DNA from: a virus
Reading direction: 5' to 3' (one strand)
DNA length: 34,098 nt
Virus record (IMG/VR): IMGVR_UViG_3300017786_000059
Coordinates: 1 to 34,098 of that record
A program made the position numbers and the translations under genes. Under the pieces are notes generated by a model, which had not been told where the DNA came from, made no database searches, and saw only the letters and a list, made by a program, of their open reading frames with translations. Positions 11,374 through 34,098 of this stretch are shown piece after piece (position 1 is the first letter of the stretch; every line of letters begins with the position of its first letter).

Positions 11374-11988
11374 ATGGCTGCTGGTGATACCGATTTATCT
11401 ATTTGCTCAGATGCTTTGATATTGCTGGGGGCTGCCCCGCTCTCTTCTTTTACGGAAGGCACAGATGCCGCCCAGGCCTGTGATAGACTTTATCCAGACT
11501 TGCGTGACAGCTTACTTTCCAGATATCCATTTAGCTGGAGCTACATCAAGGTGCAGCTCGGCCGACTATCCACTACACCAATCAATGAATTTAAATATGC
11601 TTATGGGCTGCCTGGTAATATGTTATCAGGCGTCCAGGCTGTTTTTGAAACAAGCTCCACCAACCAACGTCCTATTAATGACGGTTGGGAAATATATGGC
11701 CAGGAGCTCTACACAAATTTAGAATCTGTTTACATCGACTACCAGGAAAGCGTAGATGAAAGCAAAATGCCGCATTACTTTGTGCAGCTGCTGCGCACTT
11801 CCCTGGCATCTGAATTGGCGATTACGATTACCGACCAATCAACAAAAGCAGATTATTTCCGCACATTAGCATTTGGCACGCCTGGCGAAAACGGCCGGGG
11901 TGGTTTATTTCGTGAAGCAGTTAATATTGATTCACGCGGCCGGCTGCCGCAGATTATTGAAGATTATGCACTGATAGCGGTGAGATAA
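11374..11988 (+). CDS. Tail tubular protein A / adaptor (T7 gp11-like)
   Basis: 204 aa. The N-terminal CSDALILLGAAPLSSF...LYPDLRDSLLSRYPFSW...YAYGLPGNML pattern is typical of gp11-like proteins. AAGGAG SD. Confidence 0.8.
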   Translation: MAAGDTDLSICSDALILLGAAPLSSFTEGTDAAQACDRLYPDLRDSLLSRYPFSWSYIKVQLGRLSTTPINEFKYAYGLPGNMLSGVQAVFETSSTNQRPINDGWEIYGQELYTNLESVYIDYQESVDESKMPHYFVQLLRTSLASELAITITDQSTKADYFRTLAFGTPGENGRGGLFREAVNIDSRGRLPQIIEDYALIAVR

Positions 11989-14003
11989 TGGCTCGTATTG
12001 TTCAATTCCAAACGAACTTTAGCGTAGGCGAATTAGACCCCTTACTGCGTTCCAGGACAGATTTAAACCAATATAAAAACGCACTAGAGACGGCTGAGAA
12101 CGTAACTATTCAGCCTCAAGGCGGCGCACGTCGGCGAGCTGGCCTGGAGTTTATCTATGACTTTGGCAGCAGCTTTACATCATTTAAGCTTATACCTTTT
12201 GAATACAGCGTAGACGATAGCTATCTTTTGGTCGTTGTCACCGGCCGTATTTATGTGTTCAAAAACGGTACGCTGCAGACAAACATCAATAGCAGCGGCA
12301 ATGATTATATAACTGTGGCTGCTATTACAGCATCCATGATTGATGAGCTAAATTTTACGCAAGCTGTAGACACTTTAATTTTGCTCCACAAAGATTTAGA
12401 GCCGCAAAGAATTGTGCGCAACAGCGACACTAGCTGGACAGTAGGCGCACTGCCTATTTCTAATATACCTAAGTATGCCTACACAATTACGACAACAGCG
12501 GGAACTGCGTACAATACTGGTGTTCCGCATGATCATCTGGAGCCAAGCGGTACAGACGGAAACATTACACTTACAGCTAAGCATAGCGGGTCTGATGCAA
12601 ACGTATTTAGTGCTGCTGCCTCTACCTATATAGGCCAATATATAAATGTTGAGCCGTTTGGCAGATTACGCATTGTGCGCAAGGTAACTGCAGCTAAGTT
12701 AGAGGTTTATTGCGAGGTGCCTTTATTTGACACCAGCAATATTGATGATGCCGATTGGGAATATGAAGAAGGTTATGAGGACGTTTGGAGCAACACAAGG
12801 GGGTGGCCACGTTCTGCATCTTTCCACGAAAGCCGGCTATATTTTGGAGGTAGTGGTTCCAGACCTAATACCATCTGGGGCAGTAAGGTAATTGACTTTT
12901 TTAATTTCGATGTTGGAACTGCGCTTGATGATGAAGGTGTAGAAGCAACCATCAACACTAACCAGCTCAACGTCATAGTAAATCTTAATCCTGGCCAGGA
13001 TTTACAGATATTTACTACAGGTGGTGAGTTTATTGTTGCCCAGGCGGCTAATGAGCCGGTCACGCCCTCTAACTTCCTCGTCAAACCGCAAAGCCGCTTG
13101 GGCAGCCGGCCAGGCGTTCCTGTCGAGGATTTAGCCGGCGCAACAATTATTGTGCAACGCCAGGGCAAATCCCTCATCAGCTTTCAGTTTACAGACACAA
13201 CCGCCAGCTATGGTGCGCAGCCGCTATCTGTTTTAAGCAGCCACTTGCTAAACGACCCGGTAGACCTGTCTATACGCCGGGCAACGTCAACAGATGAGAC
13301 AGACAGGCTGTTTCTGGTAAACGCCGGCGATGGCAGCATGGCTGTCTACTCCATTTTGCAAGCGCAGAATGTCATAGCGCCTAGTAGATTTACTACAGAC
13401 GGCGAATTTATTTCTGTAGCAAATGAGCTTTCAGACACATATACAATCGTCAAAAGAACAGTGAACAGCGCGACAGTATACTATCTGGAGAAGTTTAACG
13501 AAAGTTTGACGCTGGATAGCGCTAAATCGGGCTCTGCGGCCTCCTCAGTCACCATGAGCCACCTGGAGGGTAAAACAGTAGAAATTGTTAGGGATGGGGT
13601 TCTTGAGCCTTCTCAGGTCGTTCCGGTGTCACCTTATACAATTACCTTCGGCACAGCTGCTACAAGCAGTCACCAGGTCGGCCTTAACTACGATATCACA
13701 ATTAAGACTATGCCGGCCGAACCAGCGCTGCCTCAAGGCACTATTCAGGGTATCAATAAACGTATTGTCCAGGTGGATGCAATCGTACATGAAACACAAA
13801 ACATGACCATCAATGGTAAGCCGGTTGCTTTTAGGCAGTTTGGCGCCAGCGTTCTTGGCCAGCCGGTGCAAGAATTTACAGGCACAAAAACTGTTCATGG
13901 ATTGCTAGGCTTTAGCAATACCGGGCAGATCACAATTAGCCAAAGCGTTCCGTTGAAAATGACGGTGTTGGGTATCGAATATAGAATGAGTGTAGGAAAC
14001 TAA
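11988..14003 (+). CDS. Tail tubular protein B / nozzle (T7 gp12-like)
   Basis: 671 aa. The N-terminal FQTNFSVGELDPLLRSRTDLNQYKNALETAENVTIQPQGGARRRAG is typical. TAATG overlap with tubular A. Confidence 0.8.
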   Translation: MARIVQFQTNFSVGELDPLLRSRTDLNQYKNALETAENVTIQPQGGARRRAGLEFIYDFGSSFTSFKLIPFEYSVDDSYLLVVVTGRIYVFKNGTLQTNINSSGNDYITVAAITASMIDELNFTQAVDTLILLHKDLEPQRIVRNSDTSWTVGALPISNIPKYAYTITTTAGTAYNTGVPHDHLEPSGTDGNITLTAKHSGSDANVFSAAASTYIGQYINVEPFGRLRIVRKVTAAKLEVYCEVPLFDTSNIDDADWEYEEGYEDVWSNTRGWPRSASFHESRLYFGGSGSRPNTIWGSKVIDFFNFDVGTALDDEGVEATINTNQLNVIVNLNPGQDLQIFTTGGEFIVAQAANEPVTPSNFLVKPQSRLGSRPGVPVEDLAGATIIVQRQGKSLISFQFTDTTASYGAQPLSVLSSHLLNDPVDLSIRRATSTDETDRLFLVNAGDGSMAVYSILQAQNVIAPSRFTTDGEFISVANELSDTYTIVKRTVNSATVYYLEKFNESLTLDSAKSGSAASSVTMSHLEGKTVEIVRDGVLEPSQVVPVSPYTITFGTAATSSHQVGLNYDITIKTMPAEPALPQGTIQGINKRIVQVDAIVHETQNMTINGKPVAFRQFGASVLGQPVQEFTGTKTVHGLLGFSNTGQITISQSVPLKMTVLGIEYRMSVGN

Positions 14004-14004
14004 A

Positions 14005-14445
14005 ATGGCACAAATGGCAATGGCGGGTTTTTCCGCATTTATGCAGATTAGGGCAGGGCAAGCGCAAAAAGCGATGTATAACGCAAAAGGTGCTGAAGCT
14101 ATTATACAAGGCCGAGCCCAAGCCATCGAAGCAAAGCGGAAGGGCGTGGCAGTATTGCAGCGTCTAAACGAAACACTTGCTACCACAACTGCCAGAGCAA
14201 CTACAGGCGGCGGCGTAGTAAGCACACTAGCGCTTGACAATTATGCTATGAAAGAAGGCACTGGTGAATATTATACCACTAAAGACAACGCTAATATCGC
14301 TGTCGGTCAGGCTCAGTTCCAAGCGCAAATTTATAAAACTGCCGGCAAACAAGCCATGTTAAGTGCTTATGCGGGCGCAGCCGGCACATTAGGACAAGGA
14401 CACGCCAATCAAATGCAAGTTGGTGGATACCCTTCATTTGGATGA
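14005..14445 (+). CDS. Internal virion protein (small, gp14 position)
   Basis: 146 aa, Ala/Gln/Gly-rich, directly after the nozzle gene. Confidence 0.6.
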   Translation: MAQMAMAGFSAFMQIRAGQAQKAMYNAKGAEAIIQGRAQAIEAKRKGVAVLQRLNETLATTTARATTGGGVVSTLALDNYAMKEGTGEYYTTKDNANIAVGQAQFQAQIYKTAGKQAMLSAYAGAAGTLGQGHANQMQVGGYPSFG

Positions 14446-14458
14446 GGTTTAAATTATA

Positions 14459-16717
14459 ATGGCACGCAGACCCAGATATCAAAAAGTAGGCGTTGGATTA
14501 GACGCACCAGCTCGCACAGATTTTGCTGGGCTTCGGGAGACTGCGCGAGCTGCACAAAACATTTCTGCGCAAATAGACCGTATGAGCCAATTTGTTTATA
14601 AAGAGCAAGCCAGGGCAGCTGAGCAACGCGGTCAGCAAATGGTTTCAGATATTGGTGCGCAGCCTACGTTACAAAAAATATCGGCTGCTGGCGGCCCATC
14701 GAACATCGAACAGCGTGCTGCTTATTCAACAGCAAATCGCATTGCTGCAGCTGAGATAGAAACACAAGCGGCGCTCGATATTGATAAAATTATAGCAGAT
14801 GCAGAGGTAAATGAGCTGCCATTCAGCCAAGTGCAAGCGCAGCTTCAAGATGTTACCGATGGCTACCCGGCAGCGCTATCTGATTTAGACCCGCAAACAG
14901 CTGGCATTTTGCGCCAACAACTGCAAAGAACTTCTCAGAAAGCTGAAACTTCCTACAGCATTTTTTATAACAAAGTGCAAACTAAGGCGGCGCAAGGGCG
15001 TGCATTGCAAGGCATAGATGTGCGCAGAAGAACTGTTTACAAGACTGCAGCTGGTCAAGTTTATGATGAATTTGGCGATGTAGACGTTTCTGCTAGAGAT
15101 GCTTTAGTTGATATGGAGCTGCAAAGCCTCGGTCAATATATGCGTGATTTGCAGTTTGATGAAGATGATATAAGCAAGGTTTTAATAGAAACAAAAAACC
15201 AAAGTTTTACAGAAAGCACATTGTTTGATTTTAGACAATTAAATTCACTTGATGAAAAACGAGACTTCATTGAAGAACAGCGCGAAAGATTGCCCGGCCT
15301 AATAGGCGAAGAAAGCGCCAGAACTTTAATGAACAGCCTTAATGCTGATCTTGGCAAAATTACTACTGGTCTGAAGGGGCAAGCCACAGCTACAGAAAAA
15401 GAAATAGCAGAAGCGCGTAAAGTTCTTTTGGGTGGCGGCAAACTAAATGACCAACAGATTGCAGCGCTGGATGCCAAAGTTGGCGGTTTAGGAGAATATG
15501 GTGCAGATGCAACAGAAGATTTGGCTAAGCTCAAGCGCATGAGCATGGCAGCGCAAGGTTTCCGGCAAATGCCTCCGCCACAGTTACAGGACACAATAAA
15601 CACTATGCGTACCGGGATTGCCGGAATGGGTGGTGATGGTGTTGACACATTAGAAGAGGTCGAGCTGCTAGAACAGGCTGAAACATTGCTTTCAAATATG
15701 AACACGCAAATTGCAAAAGACCCGCTATCGCACGCCATAAAATTAGATATTGTTTCTATGCAGCCGCTAGATATGTCCTTGCTTGGTTCACAAGATGAAG
15801 GTTTGCAGATGCAAGCTAGGGAACAAGCAAATGCCAGGATTGGCGCTGGGTTACAAGCAGCAGCTCATTTTGGTACTGAGCCTACGTTTTTGACAGATGA
15901 AGAAGCAAAGGCAATAACTAATGTCATGGACAATGGCAATGTGGGTGAGCAAATGGCCTTGCTCACTGGCCTTTACACAATATTCGGTGAGCAACACGTC
16001 TCCGATGTTTTTGCACAAGTAAGTAAAAAATCTCCAGAGGTAGGTCATATTGCTGGCCTGATTATGACCGGCAACCACCAAACAGCTGCAGATGCGCTGG
16101 CCGGTATGGATATTTTGCAGCAAGGATATAAAGCGCCGGAGTTTACGCCTACCAACACCGACACAATTTATAATGAACAAATGGCAGATGCGTTTGCGTT
16201 TATGCCCGACTCTATGATTGCCGGAAAAGAAATAGCCAAAGCGTTATACACCAAGCGAGCGCAGCGTGCTGGTTTAGATATGTTTGATGAAAAACTTTGG
16301 AGCCAAAGTATTAGCGATGCGTTTGGGCAAAGCATGGGTATGGGTGGTGTTCAAGATGTTTTCGGCAACAAACTACTTATGCCATCTGATGTAAGCGTAG
16401 AGCAGATAGAATCATCATTAAATAATATGACGCCAGATGATTTATATAGAGCATCTGGAGTCAAATTAAGCGATGAGCTTTTTAAATTTATTTTTAAACC
16501 AGCAGAAGAGGGAATAATATTTGACTCAGATGCAGAGTTTAACGATGAAGATTTTAGGCTAGTGGCTACAGGCAAGGACACTTACGTTATTATGATGGGT
16601 GAGCCTGGCAACGCATCATCCCGGATGGTTGAAGGCTTCTATGAAGATGAAATGGGCGGCGTAGAAGGCAACAGACGCCTAGAGATAAACATCAAAAAAT
16701 TGTTGAAGATGCAATGA
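14459..16717 (+). CDS. Internal virion / ejection protein (gp15 position)
   Basis: 752 aa, helical and Q/A-rich, no enzymatic motif seen. Call based on synteny. Confidence 0.65.
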   Translation: MARRPRYQKVGVGLDAPARTDFAGLRETARAAQNISAQIDRMSQFVYKEQARAAEQRGQQMVSDIGAQPTLQKISAAGGPSNIEQRAAYSTANRIAAAEIETQAALDIDKIIADAEVNELPFSQVQAQLQDVTDGYPAALSDLDPQTAGILRQQLQRTSQKAETSYSIFYNKVQTKAAQGRALQGIDVRRRTVYKTAAGQVYDEFGDVDVSARDALVDMELQSLGQYMRDLQFDEDDISKVLIETKNQSFTESTLFDFRQLNSLDEKRDFIEEQRERLPGLIGEESARTLMNSLNADLGKITTGLKGQATATEKEIAEARKVLLGGGKLNDQQIAALDAKVGGLGEYGADATEDLAKLKRMSMAAQGFRQMPPPQLQDTINTMRTGIAGMGGDGVDTLEEVELLEQAETLLSNMNTQIAKDPLSHAIKLDIVSMQPLDMSLLGSQDEGLQMQAREQANARIGAGLQAAAHFGTEPTFLTDEEAKAITNVMDNGNVGEQMALLTGLYTIFGEQHVSDVFAQVSKKSPEVGHIAGLIMTGNHQTAADALAGMDILQQGYKAPEFTPTNTDTIYNEQMADAFAFMPDSMIAGKEIAKALYTKRAQRAGLDMFDEKLWSQSISDAFGQSMGMGGVQDVFGNKLLMPSDVSVEQIESSLNNMTPDDLYRASGVKLSDELFKFIFKPAEEGIIFDSDAEFNDEDFRLVATGKDTYVIMMGEPGNASSRMVEGFYEDEMGGVEGNRRLEINIKKLLKMQ

Positions 16718-19700
16718 GCTTTGTATTTAAAAAAGCATCAGAGTTTGATTTGGCCCAATATCGCGGCGTTGATAAGCCAGACCCAGGGTTTGTTGAAAGT
16801 TTTAGGGCGGCTAAGAAAGCTGTTCAGCTAAATGATACCTCAGTTAGTGAGGCAAACGCACTAGAAGAGGTATGGGCGCCTATTATCGAAGAGATGAATA
16901 GCAGAGGCGCCGGGCAAACTTTTTACAACCCGGCCACAAGTTACAGAACAGCTATATTTGACGAAAACATACAGGAAGCTAATTACTCTAAAGCTATTGG
17001 CAGCATATTCAACGAAATAGAAACAAACGATGCGTTTGCAGATTTGCGCGGTAAGTTTGATAGAGACACGTTATTCGAGCAAGCTGCGACACTGGCACGC
17101 GATAGCCGCCAAGATTATTTAAACACAGTGCAAAACATATCAACCACTAGCTCTACGATAGGTCAATTTGCTGGCGGTTTTGCCGGTGCAATAGATGACC
17201 CGGTTCTGATTGGTTCAATGTTATTTGGCGGTGCCAAAGGGCTATGGCAGATGGCATTTCAGGAAGCAGTATTAGGCGCCGGCTCAGAAGCATTGATACA
17301 AACCAAAGTGCAAGAATGGTATGCGTCAACTAATCAAGAGTATGGTGCCGACCAATTTTGGAAAGCTGTTGCGTTTGGCGCAGCTGCTGGAGCTGCTACA
17401 CCATTTGCTTTTAGAGGTGCCGGAGAAGTTATTAACGTAGGCGGCAAAGCTGTCAACTTGACTGTAGAACAGTTAAAATCTGGGGTAGCTGCCTTGCGCT
17501 CAGCGGGCGTTAAATCAACATCAGAAGGCCGGCTGCTAGAGCAACTGGCAGATGATGTTCAAGCTGTCGATGAAGCTAATCCATTATTACCAAAACCAAC
17601 AAAGCCTGAAATAAAAGAAAACGAAATTATTGTTTATGACGCTAAAGGGAAGCCGGTTGTTGTTGAGGTGGTGGCCAAAAGTGAATCCGGCGGCGTTCGC
17701 ATTAAACTAGATGACGGCACAGAAGAACTTTTAGAACAACAATCTTTATCAGCAAAAAATCCATACGATTCTTCTTATGTTCAAGAAACAACTCCTGGCG
17801 CGCCTAAAACATCTGACATGGACGATGAGCTGCTAGAAACAGTAGCTCAACAGTTAGAAAGAAAAATTAAAGCGCATCAAGAAGAAAGAGGCGCAATAAG
17901 ATATGATTTTGTGCGCGACCTCAACGCAATACGAATAGAACAAAAGCGCAGAGCTGGGCAAAGTGTGGAGGCGCCAGAGCCGCCAAAAGAAAGCGCCAAC
18001 ACCTTGCCGGCTGAACATGAGCATGGTAAGCGCGTACAAGACGCTACAGCGGCTGTAGAGCGCAACCAGGCGCCTACTATGCCAGATGCTCCCAAAGTGC
18101 CACCCAGGGCCGTAGAATCGGCTTATGAAGCAGATAACCTAGATGGAACTATTTATCGCTTCGACCCGGACGAGCTGCAAGTAGATGCAGAGCTTTTCCA
18201 GTTTAAATCTGGCGGCGATGAGTTTGGTGTTACTGAGCGGCTGCAAGGCGTTACAACTTGGGATGCTGTAAAAGCTGGCCAAGTAACTGTATTTGAAAAA
18301 GCTGACGGCTCTCGCTTTATAGCAGATGGTCATCAGCGCATGGGCTTGGCTAAGCGTATCAAGGCGCAAGACCCTAGCCAAGATGTGCGTTTATATGGAC
18401 ATATACTGCGCGAAGTGGATGGGTACGCAGAAGCTGATGCAAGAGTTATTGCAGCTGTTAAAAATATTGCTGAAGGTACAGGAACAGCATTAGACGCAGC
18501 AAAAATACTCAAGGATGCACCAGGTCGAATTGGGGAGCTCCCGCCCAAATCTCGCCTGGTGCAGCAAGCAAATGGCCTGGTGATGCTGTCAAACAAAGCA
18601 TTTGGCGCAATTATCAATAATGTTGTGCCGGCTAATTATGGGGCTATAGTAGGGCGATTGATACCTGATGACGAGGGTATGCAAGACGCGGCTATAGCTA
18701 TTTTAAACAAAACACAGCCGGCAAATGAGTTCCAAACAGAGAGTATTGTGCGGCAAGTTATGGACGCCGGCGCTGAAACCAGGACACAGGAAAGCCTGTT
18801 TGGCGAAGAAATCATAACCGAGAGCTACTTTGCAGAACGTGCGAAGGTATTAGACCAGGCAGTTAAGCAGCTGCGCAAAGACAAGTCAGCATTTAACAGC
18901 TTAGTGCGCAACCAAAAAAGCCTGGAAGCAGAAGGCAATCAGCTTGCCCAGGCAGCAAACCAAAGGAGAGCAGACAATGACTCCCAAGCAATCGGGCTCC
19001 TCCAGGCCCTTGCCAACAGAAAAGGGGCGCTCTCAGACGCCCTCACAGCAGCAGCCAAACAAGCCAGAGAAGCGGGCAGCTACGGACGCGCTACTGACGG
19101 ATTCATCGAAGCTGTCAGACGAGCAATTCAAGAAGGCGATTTCGATAGGCTCGCGGCTGGCGATGTTGGACGCATTGTCAATGATACAGCGCAAGGCAGC
19201 CCTCGCCCGGCAGAACCAGAGCCAGACGTAAGCCTGTTTGATGATCCAAAAGGCCAGGCAACGCGGGAACAAGCTGACCAGCTGGAAACAGATGTAATAA
19301 CGGAAACTGAACTGCGCACCGCAGAGCCGGAAAAGCCGGTTGCTCGCAGGGAAGGAACGCAAGAAGATGAGGAGTTGCGCCAAGAATTAAAACAACTTAT
19401 AGACCGCAAAGCGCCAGAAGAAGAAATAGACAGCCATTCGGCAGTCACAACAGCTCTTGAGCAAGCGGAAGCTATACCTAAAACTAATGAGATGGAAGGT
19501 TTTGGAACAAGGGCTTTCCAGGAAAACAGAGTTTTCTATTTTGATGGCGAAGAGGTTGTCGGTTATTATGAAGCGATTTCCCGGCACTTTGATAACGCAT
19601 CAACATTACCGTATAGAGAAATGAATTTGCCGGTGCCAGATTTGCCTATCCGTTATGATGGCGAGGCTACTATTCTTTTAGGGCCGCCGGCAGCTGGCAA

Positions 19701-20544
19701 AAGCACGCTTGCCAACCCTTTTGCTATTAATGCAAAAGCAGCTATAATGGATAGTGATGAAATTAAAAAAACGCTGCCTGAATATCAAAATGGCATAGGC
19801 GCAATGGCGGTGCATGAAGAAAGCTCTGAAATTGCGCAAGACCTAATTGATGCGGCAATGAGCTCAAAAACAAATATGGTTTTACCCAAAGTGGGTGATA
19901 ATCCTGAAAGTATAAAAAAACTGGCTCGCAAGTTAAAGAAAGCCGGCTATAAAGTTAAAATATTAGAAATGAAGGTGCCGTATCAAGAAGCCCGGCGCCG
20001 TATGTTTAGCAGATTTTTAAACACTGGCAGATTAATAGGGCCAGATTATGTGCGTTATGTTGGTGATAAACCATCCGAAACATATAGAATATTGAAAGAA
20101 GAAGGAGAGTTTGATGGCTACGCAAGCATCAAAAACGACCAACCAAAAGACCAACTCCCAAGCATCGCAGACGATGCGTTTAACGGCCCAGAAATCTCAA
20201 ACACCATCGCTACGATACAACTGGTCAGAAGCGGAGAGATTAGCAGAGGAGCGCTCCCAGAGCCGGCCAGGCTACCAGAAGAAGGTGCAAGAGTTATCCC
20301 AGATGATACAGCAGAAGAAGCGCCAGCAGGGTTTTTAGGAATGTTAGAAGATGATGCGAGAGAAAGTTTACTCGCATTTAGAAATCAAATTTTTGAAGAA
20401 ATGGAAGGCCCTGAAATACCCATAGGAAGTACGCTTGATGAAAGTGGGAATGAGATTGCTGTCACTATGACCAGGCGAGAAATGTTAGATGAATTTGAGC
20501 AAGACAGAAAAATGTTAGATAGACTAAGGGATTGCGTCAAATGA
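16714..20544 (+). CDS. Large internal virion protein, polyvalent: ParB-like domain (~aa 476-600) and zeta-toxin-like P-loop kinase domain (~aa 980-1135)
   Basis: 1276 aa in the gp16 position. ...FQFKSGGDEFGVTERLQGVTTWDAVKAGQVTVFEKADGSRFIADGHQRMGLAKR... and ...ILLGPPAAGKSTLA...IMDSDEIKKTLPEY...GYKVKILEMKVPYQEARRRMFSRFLNTGRLIG... Confidence 0.8.
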   Translation: MSFVFKKASEFDLAQYRGVDKPDPGFVESFRAAKKAVQLNDTSVSEANALEEVWAPIIEEMNSRGAGQTFYNPATSYRTAIFDENIQEANYSKAIGSIFNEIETNDAFADLRGKFDRDTLFEQAATLARDSRQDYLNTVQNISTTSSTIGQFAGGFAGAIDDPVLIGSMLFGGAKGLWQMAFQEAVLGAGSEALIQTKVQEWYASTNQEYGADQFWKAVAFGAAAGAATPFAFRGAGEVINVGGKAVNLTVEQLKSGVAALRSAGVKSTSEGRLLEQLADDVQAVDEANPLLPKPTKPEIKENEIIVYDAKGKPVVVEVVAKSESGGVRIKLDDGTEELLEQQSLSAKNPYDSSYVQETTPGAPKTSDMDDELLETVAQQLERKIKAHQEERGAIRYDFVRDLNAIRIEQKRRAGQSVEAPEPPKESANTLPAEHEHGKRVQDATAAVERNQAPTMPDAPKVPPRAVESAYEADNLDGTIYRFDPDELQVDAELFQFKSGGDEFGVTERLQGVTTWDAVKAGQVTVFEKADGSRFIADGHQRMGLAKRIKAQDPSQDVRLYGHILREVDGYAEADARVIAAVKNIAEGTGTALDAAKILKDAPGRIGELPPKSRLVQQANGLVMLSNKAFGAIINNVVPANYGAIVGRLIPDDEGMQDAAIAILNKTQPANEFQTESIVRQVMDAGAETRTQESLFGEEIITESYFAERAKVLDQAVKQLRKDKSAFNSLVRNQKSLEAEGNQLAQAANQRRADNDSQAIGLLQALANRKGALSDALTAAAKQAREAGSYGRATDGFIEAVRRAIQEGDFDRLAAGDVGRIVNDTAQGSPRPAEPEPDVSLFDDPKGQATREQADQLETDVITETELRTAEPEKPVARREGTQEDEELRQELKQLIDRKAPEEEIDSHSAVTTALEQAEAIPKTNEMEGFGTRAFQENRVFYFDGEEVVGYYEAISRHFDNASTLPYREMNLPVPDLPIRYDGEATILLGPPAAGKSTLANPFAINAKAAIMDSDEIKKTLPEYQNGIGAMAVHEESSEIAQDLIDAAMSSKTNMVLPKVGDNPESIKKLARKLKKAGYKVKILEMKVPYQEARRRMFSRFLNTGRLIGPDYVRYVGDKPSETYRILKEEGEFDGYASIKNDQPKDQLPSIADDAFNGPEISNTIATIQLVRSGEISRGALPEPARLPEEGARVIPDDTAEEAPAGFLGMLEDDARESLLAFRNQIFEEMEGPEIPIGSTLDESGNEIAVTMTRREMLDEFEQDRKMLDRLRDCVK

Positions 20545-23012
20545 GCTTAGAGCAATGTATTATTAACGCCAGGCAAGAAGGCACTTTAACAGACAGCCAG
20601 GCTAACGAAGCTGGCGATTTGTTTGCGCAGCTCGAAGCAGAATACGCTACCAGGATGTCACCAGGGCAAGCAGCTGCACAAGCTGGCCAGGATACTTTCG
20701 ATGCGTTGCAATTCCAGGTTATGCAGCGCAAAAGAAAAAAGCTGCTGGCCTATCAAAACTGGAAACAAATAACAAAACAGCTGGACGAATACAAAAACTT
20801 TAAGGGCGAAGCAGACCCGGTTGCAGCTGCGATAGCGCACTTTGTCCCAGATGAACGCGCTAAATACTCAAACCTAGAGGCTAGAACACAGGCAGTAAAG
20901 AACGCGGCAACCCGGCAGCTGTATGATGTTTTAGGCACTTTTCGTAAAAATCTAATAGGCGGCACGCGCAAAAAGGCAAAGCTAAAAGACATGGTGCGGG
21001 AGGTATTTGGCGAAGATACTGGCAATGCACACGCCAAAGAAATGGCAGCTGCCTGGTCAAAATCATCTGAATATCTCCGTCAACGATTTAACGCTGCCGG
21101 CGGTGCGGTTGCAAAACGTAAAAATTGGGGGCTTCCTCAATTCCACGATACCCTTGCTGTACGCAAAGCAAGCTACCAAGAATGGCGCGACTTTATAGCG
21201 CCAAAGCTAAACAGACAAAAGATGATAGATGAACAAACCGGCGCAGCTTTTACAGAAGCCCGGTTAGAGCTGGCCTTGCGAGATGTATATGAAACAATCC
21301 GTACAGATGGGATGGTCAAAATAAAGCCAGGTGGTGTAGGCCGGGGCAAATCGGTAAGCAGCCGCCATACTGATCACAGATTTTTAGTATTTAATTCTGC
21401 TGATGATTGGATGACTTATCAACAGCGTTTTGGCAACCCAGATGCTTTTGACACAATGATGGGGCATATTTCCACTATGAGCCGCGATATCGCAATGCTG
21501 GAAATACTAGGCCCTAATCCCCAGGCAACAATGAGCTTTATGAAGCAGACCATAGCCAAGCGTGCTGCCGGCGATGTTAAGATGGAAGATAAAGCTCGCA
21601 AAGCAGCTAAGTCTATTGATGACCTGTATGGTGTTTTGTCAGGCCGCAACAATAGTCCTATTGATTCATTCTGGGGCAATACCTTTGCGGGGCTACGTCA
21701 GATACTGCAATCTGCGCAGCTGGGAGCTGCGTCTATAGCGGCTATAACAGATGTGAACTTCCAGCGAATTGCTCGCGCATCAGCCGGGCTGCCACAAACG
21801 AAAGTGGTTTCTGATTACTTGAAGCAGATGAACCCGCTCAGCACAGAAGAAAAAGGGCGCTTAGCCATCCGTCTTGGCCTTATAGCAGAAGGCTGGATGA
21901 GCATTGCTGCAGGGCAGCAAAGGTACGTTGGTGACATATCCGGGCCTGAAATAACCCGCCGGATAGCAGACTTTACAATGAAGGCATCGTTTCTATCGCC
22001 AATGACCAATGCCGGGCGCTGGTCATTTGGCATGGAGTTTTATGGCACGCTGGCCGATAATGTCGGAAAAACATTTGATGAGCTGGATGATGCGCTGCGC
22101 AACACAATGGAAAAGTATGGCATTGGTTCTGATGGCTGGGATATCATGCGCTCTACAGAGCCGTATGATTGGGAAGGTGCAAAGTTTCTGCGTCCTGAAG
22201 ATGTAGAGTTTCGGAATGACATAAGCCCGCGCCTGGCCAGAGACTTATCCACTAAAATGATGGAAATGATTGATACTGAAATGCAGTATGCGGTGCCTTC
22301 CACAACTACTAAAGGCAGAACAGCATTAGTAGGAGAAAGCCGACCAGGCACTGTTGCCGGGGAGCTAACGCGCTCATTTGCCATGTATAAAGGTTTTGGC
22401 GTTAGCCTGGTAAACTTTCACCTGATGCGCGGTCTTAACCAAACAGGTGCTAAAGGTAAGGGAAGATACTTTGCGGATTTGCTAATAAGCACAACTGTCA
22501 TGGGTGCGCTCGCGCTGCAGCTCAAAGAGATGAGCAAGGGGCGCGACCCTCGCCCTATGACAGATACAGAGTTTTGGCTGGCTGCTTTTTTGCAAGGTGG
22601 CGGGCTAGGTATTTACGGCGATTTCTTGTTTTCTGATGTTAATAGATTTGATAGAGGTTTGGCAGAAACCATCGCTGGCCCTGTTGTTGGGTTCGCAAAT
22701 GACGTTAGAAAGCTGACAATAGGAAATTTGGTTGAAGCCGTTAATGGCGAAGATACGAACATTGCATCCGAGATGATAAGTTTTGCGGGTAGATATACAC
22801 CCGGCGCATCATTATGGTATATGAGGTTGGGGCTAGAGCGCCTGGTTCTCGACCAGATGCGAATGGCTACAGATAACAAGTCCAGACAGAAGTTTAGAAA
22901 GCTCGAAGGGCGATATCGCAGAGACACTGGACAGAAATATTGGTGGCGCCCAGGACGGCGGGAGCCTAGCAGAAAACCAGATATTGAGAACATTCTAGCG
23001 GAGAGACAATAA
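20541..23012 (+). CDS. Internal virion / ejection protein with C-terminal hydrophobic segments
   Basis: 823 aa from ATG 20541 (ATGA overlap; track start 20532 is a TTG). Hydrophobic stretches LLISTTVMGALALQL and FWLAAFLQGGGLGIYGDFLF. Confidence 0.7.
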   Translation: MSLEQCIINARQEGTLTDSQANEAGDLFAQLEAEYATRMSPGQAAAQAGQDTFDALQFQVMQRKRKKLLAYQNWKQITKQLDEYKNFKGEADPVAAAIAHFVPDERAKYSNLEARTQAVKNAATRQLYDVLGTFRKNLIGGTRKKAKLKDMVREVFGEDTGNAHAKEMAAAWSKSSEYLRQRFNAAGGAVAKRKNWGLPQFHDTLAVRKASYQEWRDFIAPKLNRQKMIDEQTGAAFTEARLELALRDVYETIRTDGMVKIKPGGVGRGKSVSSRHTDHRFLVFNSADDWMTYQQRFGNPDAFDTMMGHISTMSRDIAMLEILGPNPQATMSFMKQTIAKRAAGDVKMEDKARKAAKSIDDLYGVLSGRNNSPIDSFWGNTFAGLRQILQSAQLGAASIAAITDVNFQRIARASAGLPQTKVVSDYLKQMNPLSTEEKGRLAIRLGLIAEGWMSIAAGQQRYVGDISGPEITRRIADFTMKASFLSPMTNAGRWSFGMEFYGTLADNVGKTFDELDDALRNTMEKYGIGSDGWDIMRSTEPYDWEGAKFLRPEDVEFRNDISPRLARDLSTKMMEMIDTEMQYAVPSTTTKGRTALVGESRPGTVAGELTRSFAMYKGFGVSLVNFHLMRGLNQTGAKGKGRYFADLLISTTVMGALALQLKEMSKGRDPRPMTDTEFWLAAFLQGGGLGIYGDFLFSDVNRFDRGLAETIAGPVVGFANDVRKLTIGNLVEAVNGEDTNIASEMISFAGRYTPGASLWYMRLGLERLVLDQMRMATDNKSRQKFRKLEGRYRRDTGQKYWWRPGRREPSRKPDIENILAERQ

Positions 23013-24710: not shown

Positions 24711-25922
24711 ATGGGTTATGTAGGCAACCAAACATCTAACAGCTACTCCTCAATGGACAAGCAGACCATTACTGGTAACGGTGGTGCAAGCTATACCCTG
24801 ACCCACGCTGTAGCCAACGCTCAAGAGATTGAGGTGTTTGTAAACAATGTGCGTCAGGAAGCTGGTGTTGCATACACTGTGGCTGGTACTGCACTAAGCA
24901 TGACAGGCAACGTGGCAAGCACAGATGACTTCTATGTTATCTATCAGGGCAAGGCATTGCAGACTGTAGTGCCGCCTGATGGTTCTGTTACTAGCGCAAA
25001 GCTAGACACGAACATAGCTGTTGCTGGTACGCTTACCACTGTTGGCAACGTGGGCATTGGGACGACTTCGCCTAGTTACTTGCTCGATGTTATTGGCAAC
25101 ACCAATGGCTCTGTTGTTTCTAGAATTGGTAACTTAAGCACTGGTGCTAGCTCACAGGCCATCGTGCAAATCGGTGCAGGCGCAAGTGCGGAGAGATACG
25201 TCAACTTAAACACTAACTATACGTCACAGTATTTTCAAATCTCTGGAGCAAGTATTACAACGTCTTATAAGGATTTTGACACCCAGATATTTAGAAACAA
25301 CTCTGGCGCAGAACGTATGCGTATCGACAGCAGTGGCAATCTGTCGGTGGGTAGCACTTCGGCTGTTAATGTCGCTTCTGGCACAACTGACGGTGTTACT
25401 TTAAAGCCAAATAATGTTGAAATTTCACGAGATGGTGGAACGCCTCTTTTAATGCGTAGAAGGTCATCGAACGGTGAGATGGTTGCATTTAGACGTGACA
25501 CTACATTTGTAGGCTCTATTTCCGTAACCGCATCATCCACCGCTTATAACACCTCATCTGACTACCGCCTCAAGGAAAACGTCACCGATATCACTGGCGC
25601 AACTGACAGGCTAAAGCAACTCAACCCTGTTCGGTTTAACTTTATCGCTGACGCAGATACTACAGTAGATGGCTTCCTCGCCCACGAGGTGCAGGACGTT
25701 GTACCAGAGGCAATCACTGGCACTAAGGACGGTATGCGTGACGAGGAGTACGAAGTCACACCAGCGGTTTTAGACGATGATGGCAACGTAGTCACTGAAG
25801 CTGTAATGGGTACTCGCTCTGTGCCAGATTATCAGGGCATTGACCAAAGCAAGCTAGTGCCGTTGCTGGTTAAGACCATACAAGAACTTGAGGCTCGCAT
25901 AGCCGCATTGGAGGCGAACTAA
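24711..25922 (+). CDS. Tail fibre protein 2 with C-terminal S74-type intramolecular chaperone domain
   Basis: The N-terminal anchor MGYVGNQ... is shared with ORF 27121. The C-terminus SSDYRLKENV...LNPVRFNF...FLAHEVQDVVPEA...DYQGIDQSKLVPLLVKTIQELEARIAALE is the auto-cleaving chaperone signature. Confidence 0.85.
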   Translation: MGYVGNQTSNSYSSMDKQTITGNGGASYTLTHAVANAQEIEVFVNNVRQEAGVAYTVAGTALSMTGNVASTDDFYVIYQGKALQTVVPPDGSVTSAKLDTNIAVAGTLTTVGNVGIGTTSPSYLLDVIGNTNGSVVSRIGNLSTGASSQAIVQIGAGASAERYVNLNTNYTSQYFQISGASITTSYKDFDTQIFRNNSGAERMRIDSSGNLSVGSTSAVNVASGTTDGVTLKPNNVEISRDGGTPLLMRRRSSNGEMVAFRRDTTFVGSISVTASSTAYNTSSDYRLKENVTDITGATDRLKQLNPVRFNFIADADTTVDGFLAHEVQDVVPEAITGTKDGMRDEEYEVTPAVLDDDGNVVTEAVMGTRSVPDYQGIDQSKLVPLLVKTIQELEARIAALEAN

Positions 25923-31041: not shown

Positions 31042-31419
31042 TCATGCACTGTCATTTTTTTCATCTGCTTTCATTAAATGTTTTGTGCCTCTCATCACAC
31101 TAACTCCGGGGCTGTCAACGGAGACATTTAGTTTCACAGCATCCCCGCCGCCTGAAACAGCCCTCATTGCACACGATTGGTCACGCTCGTAAAAGAATTT
31201 ATAAGAAAACTCTTCTGCGTTCTCGTCATATCCCCGCACCTCAAGAACGGTGCCGCCTTGTGCCTTGTGAAACATAACACCAAGCCCACTTTCAATATGT
31301 TTTTTTGCGCGGTCTATGTCAGGCAAGTTTTTCGTTGCGCAAACCTTTACGCCTTGCGTTGTTTCGATTGCGTTAAAATTTTTATAGCGTTCCCACGCTG
31401 CTAATTCAAATGCGTCCAT
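31042..31419 (-). CDS. Hypothetical protein (125 aa)
   Basis: Track ORF with AAGGAGGA SD upstream. No motif recognised. Confidence 0.7.
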   Translation of the reverse strand: MDAFELAAWERYKNFNAIETTQGVKVCATKNLPDIDRAKKHIESGLGVMFHKAQGGTVLEVRGYDENAEEFSYKFFYERDQSCAMRAVSGGGDAVKLNVSVDSPGVSVMRGTKHLMKADEKNDSA

Positions 31420-31431
31420 AACTAATCCTCC

Positions 31432-31653
31432 TTAATCCAATATAACCAAGCCATTCTTCATGCCATTGCCCCGGCGCACCCAACCCCGGCGCTCGATGGC
31501 AGCCAGGTGCTTTGCTATATTAGCCTGGCTGATGCCGAAATACTCCGCTGCTTCTGTTTGCGTAGGCGTGATGCCGTTAGCTTTCTGGTACACCACCAGG
31601 TAATCAAAGATTTCCTTCTGGCGTTCCGTCAAATTGTACTTTACCTGTTCCAT
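31432..31653 (-). CDS. LexA N-terminal (winged-helix) DNA-binding-domain-only protein (73 aa)
   Basis: LTERQKEIFDYLVVYQKANGITPTQTEAAEYFGISQANIAKHLAAIERRGWVRR aligns co-linearly with E. coli LexA [54 protein letters not shown]. The protein ends where the LexA hinge begins. Confidence 0.8.
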   Translation of the reverse strand: MEQVKYNLTERQKEIFDYLVVYQKANGITPTQTEAAEYFGISQANIAKHLAAIERRGWVRRGNGMKNGLVILD

Positions 31654-32612
31654 TATCCGTTCCTCGATTTAACGGCGAGCTCTTTTAGCTTGCCCTTGTA
31701 AGCATCAGCAACAATCTGCTTGATGTTCTCTGGCATTTTGTCGATGCCTTCCTGGTTTGCTTCCTTTAGCTGTTTGAGTAATGACATTCTATCCCGGGCG
31801 TTTATCGGGTTGCCTTGCGCGTCAAGCTCGGCTGCAGCTGCCTTCTCAAACATCATAATCATTTGGTTTCCGTATGCCTCAACGTCCTCTGATTCGAAGA
31901 TAAGCGAACCCTGGCGCCCAACCAAGCGGTAGTTATATGCCGGTTGCTGGGGCTCTGGCGGCACCTCGGCCTCCTCTATCACATCAATAGCATCTTCCAC
32001 CACCAGCTCGACATCCCCGCTCTCAGGCGCCTTTATATCGTCCAGCTGGTTCTTTGGCGGGTCATCCGGGGTGATGTTCTTTGGCGGCGGGATATCTTGC
32101 GCCTCTTCTTGAGTGATAATCCCCTTCATTGCATCCGGGAAAGCATCGCGGATAGCAAACCCCCTAGCACGCATGGCAAGCATCCGCTCCGGGTACTGTG
32201 TCCAGGGGCCTTGCTTGCCCCAAAGCCTTGCCTTCTTGGCATTAGCAACAGAAAAAGTTTTTGTTGTTTCCTCTATCTGTCCGTCAGGATAAGCACGTTT
32301 TACGGTGCAGCTGGCAACCATGCTTTCGCCTTCGCCTTCCACCTTTTCGGTTACGCCCCGGCAATCAGGGTGCGCTTTTACCAGGGCAAGCGCAGCATCC
32401 CCCCAGATGCTAGGCTTACCATTGATAACGGCTATGTTCTGCAGCGCTTGCATCGGCTGCAGCCCTACTTCAAATCCCCATTGCATTGCGACCAGGCAAT
32501 CTTGTGGCTTGCCCTTAAAGTTGTTAGGCACCATGCCGGACTGCGCCAGCATCTTGGAAAACTCCATTGCCTCGGTCATGTTTTGCGGGGTGAGCGTTAA
32601 ACTTTTCGACAT
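31653..32612 (-). CDS. recT: RecT-family single-strand annealing recombinase
   Basis: ...VAMQWGFEVGLQPMQALQNIAVINGKPSIWGDAA...GPWTQYPERMLAMRARGFAIRDAFPDAMKG is the RecT signature. Start is placed at the second ATG (GGAGGA SD; TAATG overlap). Confidence 0.9.
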   Translation of the reverse strand: MSKSLTLTPQNMTEAMEFSKMLAQSGMVPNNFKGKPQDCLVAMQWGFEVGLQPMQALQNIAVINGKPSIWGDAALALVKAHPDCRGVTEKVEGEGESMVASCTVKRAYPDGQIEETTKTFSVANAKKARLWGKQGPWTQYPERMLAMRARGFAIRDAFPDAMKGIITQEEAQDIPPPKNITPDDPPKNQLDDIKAPESGDVELVVEDAIDVIEEAEVPPEPQQPAYNYRLVGRQGSLIFESEDVEAYGNQMIMMFEKAAAAELDAQGNPINARDRMSLLKQLKEANQEGIDKMPENIKQIVADAYKGKLKELAVKSRNG

Positions 32613-32827
32613 TATTTTTTCCTCCATACCCGGTAGCTATCACCTTCCCGCCGGCTGATTGCCAGGCCGCCGCTCTGTTTGATTGCCGCAAACAGGCCAT
32701 TCTTTTTGGTGCCATTCGATACCAGGACGCTATCTCCTGGCTTCATCTTGGCAGCTATTTCTTGCCACTTGCCGGCACGCTGCCGGCTTGGCATTGGCAC
32801 GTTCTTTTCAATTTTAATTTTATCCAT
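32612..32827 (-). CDS. Small hypothetical protein (71 aa) between exonuclease and RecT
   Basis: MDKIKIEKNVPMPSRQRAGKWQEIAAKMKPGDSVLVS...SYRVWRKK. Only the C-terminal 71 codons of track ORF 32612-33112 lie outside the exonuclease gene. GGAG SD and ATGGATAA overlap. Confidence 0.65.
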   Translation of the reverse strand: MDKIKIEKNVPMPSRQRAGKWQEIAAKMKPGDSVLVSNGTKKNGLFAAIKQSGGLAISRREGDSYRVWRKK

Positions 32828-33824
32828 CGTTTTGCTCCTTGATGCTGATGGTTTTTTGTCTGACAGATTTTGCTTCTGTCGCTGGTTTGATGATGGTGCT
32901 GCACGTTGCGCAGCGTTCAGCCGGCTTTGCTTTATAGTTTCTGACCGGCCAGCTGACTTGGTAGAGGGTGTTGCCGGCGATGATTTTCCCCCGGCTGTTT
33001 TCTCCAAGCGCTGCCATGAGCTGCGTTTGAGTTGCTGCTTTGATTTCTTCTGCGCCTTTGATTGCGTCCAGGGCAGCCTGGTAATTTCGTACAGCTTCTG
33101 CAAGGTCTGCATCTAACTCTATCTCCTCTTCTATATCTTTCGGCGCCGGGTGCAGCTTGGCTGCTTCCTCTGCTGTTCTGGGTTCCGGCCAGGTTCCGTC
33201 TGCCATGTGGCGCTCAAAGTCCTGAACGGCACGTTGGATAGCGGTTTGCGTATCCCGGTGCCGCATATAAATGTGAGCTGTCAGTTTGCGCCCGCCGTAG
33301 TTTGTAAAGATTATACCCACTTCAGCAGCGTGGCACATCATGCCAGCTTGCACCTGGATTGGCCCCCGGTACAGTGGCGGGTCATCTTCCCGCTGCGCTG
33401 TAGTGGTGAACTTCGCTTCCAGAACCACCCGGCCGCTAGCCTCCAGCTCCCCGCTGCGTGTCATAACATAAATGCCAGCAGCTTCGTCTGTCCTAAACGT
33501 GATGGGTTCATCATCTGGGATGTAATGCAGCCCATCATCAGAATAATACAGCTCCATTCTCGGGTGCTTCTTTGCTTCTTTGTGGCTGTGGGTGCCGATC
33601 TCTGCCGGGTCTAATCCGACCAGGCGGCAGCCTCGCTCCAGAGTAACATCCTCTGTCGCGTCTCCCATGTCCACTTGCAAGCTATCCAGCTCCGGCCGGG
33701 CCTTACCTTCCAGGCTTTCCCTGGCACGCAGCAGCACATCATAGGCGTCTTGCCAGGGGCTAAAGCCCATGTAAGCGGCCAACGCGCTGCCAGACAAGTG
33801 ATTATCAGGCGATAGCTTAGCCAT
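32820..33824 (-). CDS. YqaJ / lambda-exonuclease-like PD-(D/E)XK recombination exonuclease
   Basis: GSALAAYMGFSPWQDAYDV..., ...VLEAKFT... (ExK), ...YRGPIQVQAGMM.... Paired with RecT. Confidence 0.85.
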   Translation of the reverse strand: MAKLSPDNHLSGSALAAYMGFSPWQDAYDVLLRARESLEGKARPELDSLQVDMGDATEDVTLERGCRLVGLDPAEIGTHSHKEAKKHPRMELYYSDDGLHYIPDDEPITFRTDEAAGIYVMTRSGELEASGRVVLEAKFTTTAQREDDPPLYRGPIQVQAGMMCHAAEVGIIFTNYGGRKLTAHIYMRHRDTQTAIQRAVQDFERHMADGTWPEPRTAEEAAKLHPAPKDIEEEIELDADLAEAVRNYQAALDAIKGAEEIKAATQTQLMAALGENSRGKIIAGNTLYQVSWPVRNYKAKPAERCATCSTIIKPATEAKSVRQKTISIKEQNDG

Positions 33825-34098
33825 TTAAAAACTCCTTCCCTGCCTGGGTTATCTGCCAGACAATCTCCCGGCGCTTACGCTGGTTCAGTAATCTTTCCCC
33901 GGTATCTTCTACCAGGCCATAGCGCGTGAGCTCTGTGATGCGAGGCTTCACACTATACAGCCATTCATCCATGCCATCAGCCACTTGCTCCCCGGTGGCT
34001 GCTCCATACTGTGACAGATGCCGCAGCACTTTCAGGCGCAGCCCGGTTACACGCGGCGCCACCTTCTCCGCTGCTTCAACCTCAGTATCTGCAGCGCC
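33817..34098 (-). CDS. Winged-helix (MarR-like) DNA-binding protein; the ORF runs off the window edge and continues across the circle junction to a start at 156 (or 273)
   Basis: LKVLRHLSQYGAATGEQVADGMDEWLYSVKPRITELTRYGLVEDTGERLLNQRKRREIVWQIT is wHTH-like. The frame stays open through 34098, which is equivalent to position 123. Confidence 0.75.
   Translation of the reverse strand, partial: GAADTEVEAAEKVAPRVTGLRLKVLRHLSQYGAATGEQVADGMDEWLYSVKPRITELTRYGLVEDTGERLLNQRKRREIVWQITQAGKEFLNG
33976..34098. repeat. Terminal direct repeat, copy 2 (identical to 1-123)
   Basis: Exact 123-nt identity with the window start. Unique genome length is therefore 33,975 bp. Confidence 0.95.

Follow-up and report, generated by a model that had tools for sequence, protein, structure and literature searches.

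A zeta-type kinase as exchangeable C-terminal cargo of a ParB-containing polyvalent protein at the gp16 position of a marine podophage

Phages inject several enzymes into the host, including T4 Alt, the N4 virion RNA polymerase, the T7 gp16 transglycosylase, and P1 Dar. The characteristic enzyme domain of T7 gp16 is an SLT lytic transglycosylase. Zeta-toxin-like kinases, ParB, and RelA/SpoT domains were listed by Iyer et al. in 2017 as cargo of polyvalent proteins (PMC5512222). The polyvalent proteins of phages were predicted to be packaged in the capsid, P1 DdrB was reported in the head, and delivery into the host was suggested for several fusions (PMC5512222). The zeta-like kinases in that paper were from polyvalent proteins that belong to conjugative elements and from MuF fusions, and searching its text for gp16 returned no mention. 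Here we describe a zeta-type kinase in the open reading frame (ORF) 16714–20544 of the IMG/VR virus record IMGVR_UViG_3300017786_000059. This stretch of 34,098 nucleotides (nt), called the window below, is a near-complete marine podophage genome of ~34 kb. The intact ORF encodes a multidomain protein of 1276 amino acids (aa) and lies on the plus strand, as do all of its domains and motifs given below. The zeta kinase is an exchangeable C-terminal cargo of this ParB-containing polyvalent protein, which stands by synteny at the gp16 position of the T7-like structural module in a phage resembling Methylophilales phage MEP301. Since the zeta, ParB, and RelA/SpoT domains were already on the list of Iyer et al., the kind is known computationally, as a first-pass annotation of the window had correctly remarked. 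Three features differ from the cases in that paper and are new: a carrier that fills the gp16 slot of a T7-like module, the exact breakpoints of the cargo, and the alternation of zeta and Tas1-like alleles in genomes that are ~90% identical.

The Pfam search showed that aa 985–1142 (19666–20139) matched the Zeta_toxin family (PF06414) with E = 8e-18 and 65 bits, against a gathering cut-off of 22.3 bits. An AlphaFold2 model of aa 885–1165 (19366–20208), built from a 41-sequence alignment, gave a compact kinase fold with a predicted local distance difference test score (pLDDT) of 94.4 and a predicted template modelling (TM) score (pTM) of 0.90. Within this compact fold, aa 885–975 form a subfamily-specific N-terminal helical extension of ~90 aa. 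The top eight Foldseek matches in the Protein Data Bank (PDB) were all PezT (2p5t) or zeta (1gvn/3q8x), with E-values of 1.3e-7 to 1.5e-6 and TM scores of 0.48–0.60; 2p5t was best at 1.3e-7, and 1gvn/3q8x reached 1.5e-7. The next matches were the putative kinase 2rhm (7e-5), AvrRxo1 (4z8q; 7.7e-5, TM 0.41/0.35), and the gonococcal zeta1 (6eph; 1e-4), and polynucleotide, adenylate, and shikimate kinases appeared at ~2–9e-4, the first two at ~4e-4. The E-values of AvrRxo1, polynucleotide kinase, and adenylate kinase were ~500–3000 times worse than those of PezT and zeta. When a profile from 14 relatives was searched against PDB sequences, zeta 1gvn ranked first (3e-7) and PezT third (2.3e-5). 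The single-sequence phmmer search of the PDB found nothing significant (best Pnkp1, 0.052), so zeta and PezT were resolved by the profile search alone. The NCBIfam search returned sub-threshold kinase noise only, and the gene had no megablast match in the phage collection. The domain genuinely belongs to the zeta/PezT P-loop kinase superfamily, as the first-pass annotation had read it. Zeta_toxin and PezT/zeta ranked first over other P-loop families in the profile and structure searches, and neither a placement in another such family nor a lack of significant matches was found.

The domain shares with the solved zeta and PezT proteins (1gvn, 3q8x, 2p5t) the Pfam family, the best fold match, and the order of the Walker A lysine, D-x-D, P-x-Y/F, and lid arginine. 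Zeta and PezT are stand-alone proteins of ~250–290 aa, whereas the window kinase is a domain with a ~90-aa helical extension inside a protein of 1276 aa. Zeta and PezT also have a GTXR motif and Glu100, neither of which is matched in the window kinase, and an epsilon/PezA partner gene, which has no recognisable counterpart in the window. AvrRxo1 is a type III effector with a zeta-fold kinase, and its fold similarity to the window domain is significant but below that of PezT and zeta. It differs in its delivery route and in having its own antitoxin-like partner, AvrRxo1-ORF2 (PDB entry titles).

Comparison with sister phages by blastn located the boundaries of the cargo. The window and the metagenomic locus L007 had 89–92% nt identity up to 19288, no similarity at 19289–20450, and 84% identity from 20451. 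The exchangeable cassette with the zeta-type kinase therefore covers aa 859–1246 (19289–20450), with breakpoints at 19288/19289 and 20450/20451. The kinase had been placed at 19650–20120 in the first-pass annotation; the domain is located there, but the unit is wider, for both the fold (19366–20208) and the cassette. A conserved C-terminal tail (aa 1247–1276, 20451–20544) is present behind either cassette, as shown by a blastp map, an alignment, and blastn against L007 and L003. The blastp map of 24 full-length homologs showed conserved segments at aa 1–291 and ~424–870/930, a variable region, and a conserved tail from 1204/1235. Zeta_toxin PF06414 was present in 13 of these homologs (precomputed Pfam), and seven carried unrelated sequence in the variable region.

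The seven alternative cassettes have one core in common. Its profile matched Tas1 (PDB 6ox6, E = 4.6e-13) and, more weakly, a small alarmone synthetase (2e-3), and one of the proteins (P0023) gave a weak Pfam RelA_SpoT match. This Tas1-like RelA/SpoT pyrophosphokinase cassette occupies the core-protein slot of sister phages at L007 3897–4920 (protein P0015) and at about L003 12139–13158. Tas1 is homologous to this alternative cassette and not to the window's kinase. According to the published abstracts, Tas1 is a delivered, ATP-using toxin that targets nucleotides, and such (p)ppApp synthetases serve type VI secretion and toxin–antitoxin systems as bactericidal toxins. PADLOC matched neither the window protein nor the Tas1-type homologs to a defence system. 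Longer Tas1-like versions (P0023, P0024, P0026, and P0028) have an added segment N-terminal of the core with an ELADGNSTYA motif, which looks ParB-like by eye.

Another sister phage, L008, carries the zeta-type cassette and had 90–93% nt identity to the window throughout, except for an insertion at 17575–18029. The synonymous divergence (dS) between the window and L008 (10001–13429) was 0.77 for aa 1–287, 0.33 for aa 440–858, 0.009 for the zeta core, and 0.125 for the C-terminal tail. The fall to 0.009 in the zeta core indicates that the cassette was recently exchanged between lineages by recombination. The ratio of nonsynonymous to synonymous divergence (dN/dS) of the zeta core between the window and L008 was uninformative because almost no substitutions were present. 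A GC dip over the zeta core (0.39–0.40 vs. ~0.47) was rejected as transfer evidence because similar dips were found elsewhere in the region. The clean replacement of zeta by a Tas1-like enzyme in a ~90%-identical sister phage shows that the slot behaves as an exchangeable effector bay. Its behaviour recalls the variable toxin tips of polymorphic-toxin loci. The two alleles, found in genomes that are ~90% identical, amount to a natural experiment and point to a shared target logic, namely nucleotide pools or nucleotide signalling.

The catalytic residues of the kinase were conserved. The Walker A/P-loop motif GPPAAGKST is located at aa 990–998 (19681–19707; K996, S997), and K996 aligned with zeta K46. 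The D-S-D-E motif is located at aa 1013–1016 (19750–19761), and D1015 was the counterpart of zeta Asp67 and PezT Asp66 in the profile alignment to 1gvn and 2p5t. The zeta segment D-N-D-T-F-K-Q-Q-H-P-N-F aligned to D-S-D-E-I-K-K-T-L-P-E-Y of the window. In zeta and PezT, this aspartate deprotonates the substrate (PMC6362051). The Arg-rich lid segment RRRMFSRFLNTGR is located at aa 1094–1106 (19993–20031), and R1100 aligned with zeta R158. The residues quoted in the first-pass annotation were all present in order in the uninterrupted ORF, namely the Walker A motif, MDSDEIKK (aa 1012–1019), AGYKVKIL (aa 1077–1084), and EARRRMFSRFLNTGRL (aa 1092–1107). Among 41 relatives with identities down to ~20%, K996, S997, and R1096 were invariant (41/41), and R1100, D1013, and D1015 were conserved in 40, 39, and 35, respectively. 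The deviants at D1015 were all within a dinoflagellate branch. The dN/dS of the kinase core was ~0.10 against the distant relative L005, with dS near saturation. The residue conservation and this ratio indicate that the phosphotransfer machinery is intact and under selection, and the domain is probably catalytically competent.

The substrate-site residues of zeta were not matched. The GTXR motif (zeta G117–T121) is needed for binding UDP-N-acetylglucosamine (UDP-GlcNAc), and Glu100 also binds it (PMC6362051). The zeta segment E116-G-T-G-R-T121 aligned to P1058-K-V-G-D-N1063 of the window (R120-T121 to D1062-N1063), so that P-K-V-G at aa 1058–1061 (19885–19896) stands in place of E116 and G117-T118-G119. 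Zeta Glu100 aligned to a non-acidic residue. The subfamily has its own conserved signatures instead: H1034-E-E-S-S, N1054, and P1058-x-V-G. H-E-E-S-S (aa 1034–1038, 19813–19827) starts the helix that bears Glu100 in zeta and is presumed to take part in substrate binding; H1034 was conserved in 38 of the 41 sequences and P1058 in 37. Since GTXR is replaced by P-K-V-G across the subfamily, the substrate is probably not UDP-GlcNAc. This favours the open target of the first-pass annotation over the canonical zeta activity.

The domain might nevertheless act as a canonical zeta/PezT kinase. It would then phosphorylate UDP-GlcNAc (or UDP-N-acetylmuramic acid) and block MurA, and the weakened wall would ease DNA entry or lysis. 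The nearest solved structures, PezT and zeta, are UDP-GlcNAc kinases, and Iyer et al. proposed this activity for zeta-like kinases in polyvalent proteins (PMC5512222). A peptidoglycan-cleaving SLT domain is also found in relatives of the same family such as P0032. We consider this explanation unlikely. The motif needed for UDP-GlcNAc binding (PMC6362051) is replaced subfamily-wide, Glu100 is not matched, the cassette of the sister phages is a nucleotide pyrophosphokinase rather than a wall-targeting enzyme, and we reason that MurA poisoning would be slow compared with DNA ejection. The subfamily-wide loss of GTXR is also new, and it points away from the cell-wall explanation of PMC5512222.

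The Tas1-like toxin in the same slot of sister phages makes the kinase look like an enzyme delivered with the DNA. We lean slightly towards the following composite reading. The 1276-aa protein would be packaged in the capsid and would enter the host along with the phage DNA. There, a few copies of the kinase would transfer phosphate from host ATP to some small molecule that is not UDP-GlcNAc. Our preferred guess for the target is the ribose or sugar 3′-OH of a nucleotide-type metabolite. The outcome may be an early shut-down of the host or a blunted nucleotide-based defence. AvrRxo1 makes 3′-NADP, and Tas1/RelA-SpoT enzymes pyrophosphorylate the 3′-OH of nucleotides. Together with the sugar 3′-OH chemistry of zeta, these two activities suggested the nucleotide-type 3′-OH. 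No antitoxin would be needed because the producing cell is already doomed. We speculate further, and only tentatively, that the C-terminal region of the gp16 slot is a hot-swappable effector bay for toxin-type, ATP-using enzymes that modify nucleotides, either a zeta-like kinase that does not use UDP-GlcNAc or a Tas1-like pyrophosphokinase. These would enter the cell together with the genome and, from time zero, would act on the host nucleotide pool or a nucleotide immune signal. No earlier small-molecule kinase effectors delivered by the virion of a phage with a T7-like ejectosome would then precede them. Should the kinase indeed enter with the DNA, the small set of phage-injected enzymes would gain a new class, that of small-molecule kinases. 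A very large uncharacterised zeta branch of more than 1000 clusters, mostly in giant phage and plasmid proteins, would likewise be assigned a function.

A precedent for a virion location came from P-SS2, whose ORF030 (17648–22147) holds a related zeta domain. Mass spectrometry of purified virions detected this protein, at 96.5 peptides on average (PMC2784084). Several points weigh against the composite reading. P-SS2 ORF030 also has capsid homology, and its virion peptides were not assigned to the zeta part. We infer, for the window protein, both packaging and ejection. The nucleotide 3′-OH target is a guess by analogy, and AvrRxo1, one of the two enzymes behind that analogy, was a weaker structural match than PezT and zeta. 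A Tas1-like enzyme that consumes ATP would hurt the phage too, even in a few copies, which makes the toxin logic not straightforward; the true activity or regulation of the slot cargo may thus differ from that of the characterised toxins. The family profile search of PDB sequences found zeta and Tas1 only, and no gp16. Foldseek with a model of aa 1–884 gave no gp16-like match, which is a weak negative given the moderate quality of the model (pLDDT 69). The phrog_418 match of the 146-aa gene upstream, at the gp14 position, was modest (3.4e-5).

A late action in the producer cell was also considered. The kinase would, for example, arrest the metabolism of the host, interfere with abortive-infection signalling, or set the moment of lysis, and its tether to a structural protein would make delivery irrelevant. 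As part of the late structural operon and coupled to its neighbours, the gene would yield an abundant late product, and no antitoxin was found. The copies per virion would also be low if the protein is gp16-like, as is known for T7. The cassette, however, always lies between the conserved body and the conserved C-terminal tail and was never found as a free gene. Members of this zeta subfamily also occur in fusions with portal, ART-PolyVal, and ddrB-ParB domains, and the predicted packaging of phage polyvalent proteins and the reported location of P1 DdrB (PMC5512222) also argue for delivery. Late action is as improbable in our view as the cell-wall explanation.

The Pfam scan of about 40 window ORFs found no epsilon/PezA-type antitoxin, which agrees with the absence of an epsilon-like gene remarked earlier. 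The start of the ORF overlaps the upstream stop (ATGA, 16714–16717), and its stop overlaps an in-frame ATG (20541) of the downstream gene in an ATGA of the same layout. The downstream gene, encoding 826 aa, was listed from a TTG at 20532. The ATGA overlaps at both ends indicate that the gene is translationally coupled on both sides, with no space for a small gene between. The helix-turn-helix (HTH) proteins of the window were a LexA-like protein of 73 aa and a minus-strand protein of 81 aa, both far from the kinase gene, and one of 282 aa in the early region. An antitoxin-like inhibitor of unrecognisable sequence may be present, or the extension at aa 885–975 may inhibit the kinase in cis. The literature searches turned up no experimental work on phage or virion-borne zeta-like kinases.

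A polynucleotide-kinase-like activity of the AAA_33/Pnkp1 kind would act on the 5′-OH ends of RNA or DNA, for example in the repair of tRNAs cut by anticodon nucleases of the host. AAA_33 matched the same domain at 6e-9, the profile matched Pnkp1 (4xrp) at 3e-5, and polynucleotide kinase structures reached TM scores of up to 0.72 when normalised to the target. In the PHROGs search, the top matches were families without known function or annotated as minor head protein (1.7e-13 and 6e-11), and phrog_505, a polynucleotide kinase family, came after them at 4.5e-9. The Zeta_toxin score of 65 bits was nearly double the 36.7 bits of AAA_33, the Foldseek E-values of PezT and zeta were ~3000-fold better than that of polynucleotide kinase, and no phosphatase or ligase partner domain was found in the protein, so this explanation is very unlikely. 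Least credible of all is a degenerate, non-catalytic P-loop fold serving as structural filler of a core protein: the enzymatic activity is a prediction and the slot accepts wholly different sequences, but the Walker A lysine and serine and the lid arginines are invariant or nearly so, the catalytic aspartate is highly conserved across relatives down to ~20% identity, dN/dS is ~0.1, and the profile found 1068 clusters at E ≤ 1e-30.

The profile search of clusters at 50% identity returned 8223 at E ≤ 1e-3 in total. The best 150 (all E < 1e-70) were mostly inside proteins of 1000–6900 aa, and many had the architecture of the window protein, with the domain at ~750–1100 of ~1100 aa. Among 26 sampled close relatives, Zeta_toxin was found in all, ART-PolyVal in six, ddrB-ParB in four, and LPD38 in two. 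One of the 26 was a fusion to a phage portal, and others carried RadC, GNAT, or SNF2. The best viral structure matches of the kinase model were long phage proteins, including those of P-SS2 and haloarchaeal viruses. The second-best viral fold match (E = 2.6e-12) was BFVD A0A6J5LTH6, a protein of 1134 aa from an uncultured phage named ‘Anti-CBASS protein Acb1’. The entry name suggests that some polyvalent proteins combine a zeta-like kinase with a signal-degrading phosphodiesterase. In Symbiodiniaceae dinoflagellates (Durusdinium, Effrenium, and Symbiodinium), ‘Zeta toxin domain-containing proteins’ of 350–580 aa (P0049–P0055, P0057, and P0060) matched the profile of the phage subfamily with E-values from 1e-26 to 1e-53, and D1015 is replaced by N or E there. 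Transfer between marine phages or bacteria and eukaryotes may have taken place.

The rest of the 1276-aa protein comprises three parts N-terminal of the cassette. The N-terminal module (aa 1–287, 16714–17574) is mostly helical in the AlphaFold2 model and is common to the homologs P0013–P0030 regardless of cassette. It contains Gly/Ala-rich, mildly hydrophobic stretches at aa ~148–190 and ~215–237. A transmembrane reading of these stretches was rejected because the hydropathy maximum of ~1.2 is under the classical level of a transmembrane helix. A window-specific insertion (aa 288–439, 17575–18029) follows and consists of a small beta-rich domain and helices, with strands at aa 304–340 in the model. 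Foldseek of this domain gave weak Tudor/SH3-like matches alone (E > 3). The 455-nt insertion is missing from L003, L007, and L008 (blastn) and is a second variable slot within the same gene. The homolog P0032 has its SLT transglycosylase at aa 351–428, immediately N-terminal of its middle module.

The conserved middle module (aa 440–858, 18030–19288) has a ParB/Noc-like domain and matched phrog_10691 (2e-63) and the C-terminal part of phrog_21 (9e-25). It contains a D-G-H-Q-R motif at aa 538–542 (18325–18339), in which G539, H540, and R542 are invariant. Foldseek of the aa 1–884 model matched Noc (7nfu, 2.2e-4) and ParB (~5e-3) through this module. The ParB-like module and the kinase in one chain of 1276 aa make the product a polyvalent protein as Iyer et al. 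use the term (PMC5512222), with the same large size and the same ParB-superfamily and zeta-like kinase content. Its virion-gene context, a criterion of polyvalent proteins, is given by the flanking TerS, TerL, portal, scaffold, capsid, and tail genes. A 792-aa gene of Dunaliella viridis virus SI2 (HQ332136; L002 8966–11344) matched the middle module with 40% identity (E = 2e-59) and stops short of the kinase cassette. HQ332136 was deposited as an algal virus yet carries a podophage structural module, and it is probably a bacteriophage.

The structural module of the window runs from left to right through RusA, TerS, TerL, a T7-type portal, scaffold, capsid, and the tail tubular proteins A and B. 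The capsid protein had 60% identity to that of MEP301. Tail tubular B (11988–14003) is followed by genes of 146, 752, 1276, and 826 aa, the last annotated as a virion structural protein in PHROG. The 146-aa protein at the gp14 position (14005–14445, plus strand) gave the phrog_418 match, to an internal virion protein family. The 752-aa protein at the gp15 position (14459–16717, plus strand) had no PHROG or Pfam match and was kept in the syntenic loci. T7 gp14, gp15, and gp16 have 196, 747, and 1318 aa. The 146/752/1276-aa series thus parallels them in order and size. The gene order was common to five metagenomic loci of the L003–L008 series, with Pfam Head-tail_con and Phage_T7_Capsid matches on their portal and scaffold. 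The T7 gp15/gp16 slot proposed in the first-pass annotation is thus upheld by gene order and by sizes near those of T7, and not by homology, since no gp16 similarity was detected. The gp16 assignment is positional only because the N-terminal and middle parts match T7 gp16 in neither sequence nor fold. The window protein is like T7 gp16 in position, in size, and in having an enzymatic domain. They differ in that T7 gp16 has an N-terminal lytic transglycosylase, whereas the cargo of the window protein is a C-terminal kinase of toxin type.

No DNA or RNA polymerase was identified in the scanned window ORFs, which resembles MEP301 and not T7. Fibre-like genes lie 3′ of the 826-aa gene, and an M15 peptidase comes afterwards. 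The intramolecular-chaperone domain Peptidase_S74, usual in tail fibres and spikes, was matched by a protein of 403 aa (24711–25922; E = 5e-11). A divergent module on the minus strand (31042–34062) includes RecT (31653–32627), the 73-aa LexA_DNA_bind-like protein beside it (31432–31653, E = 4e-12), and the 81-aa HTH protein (33817–34062).

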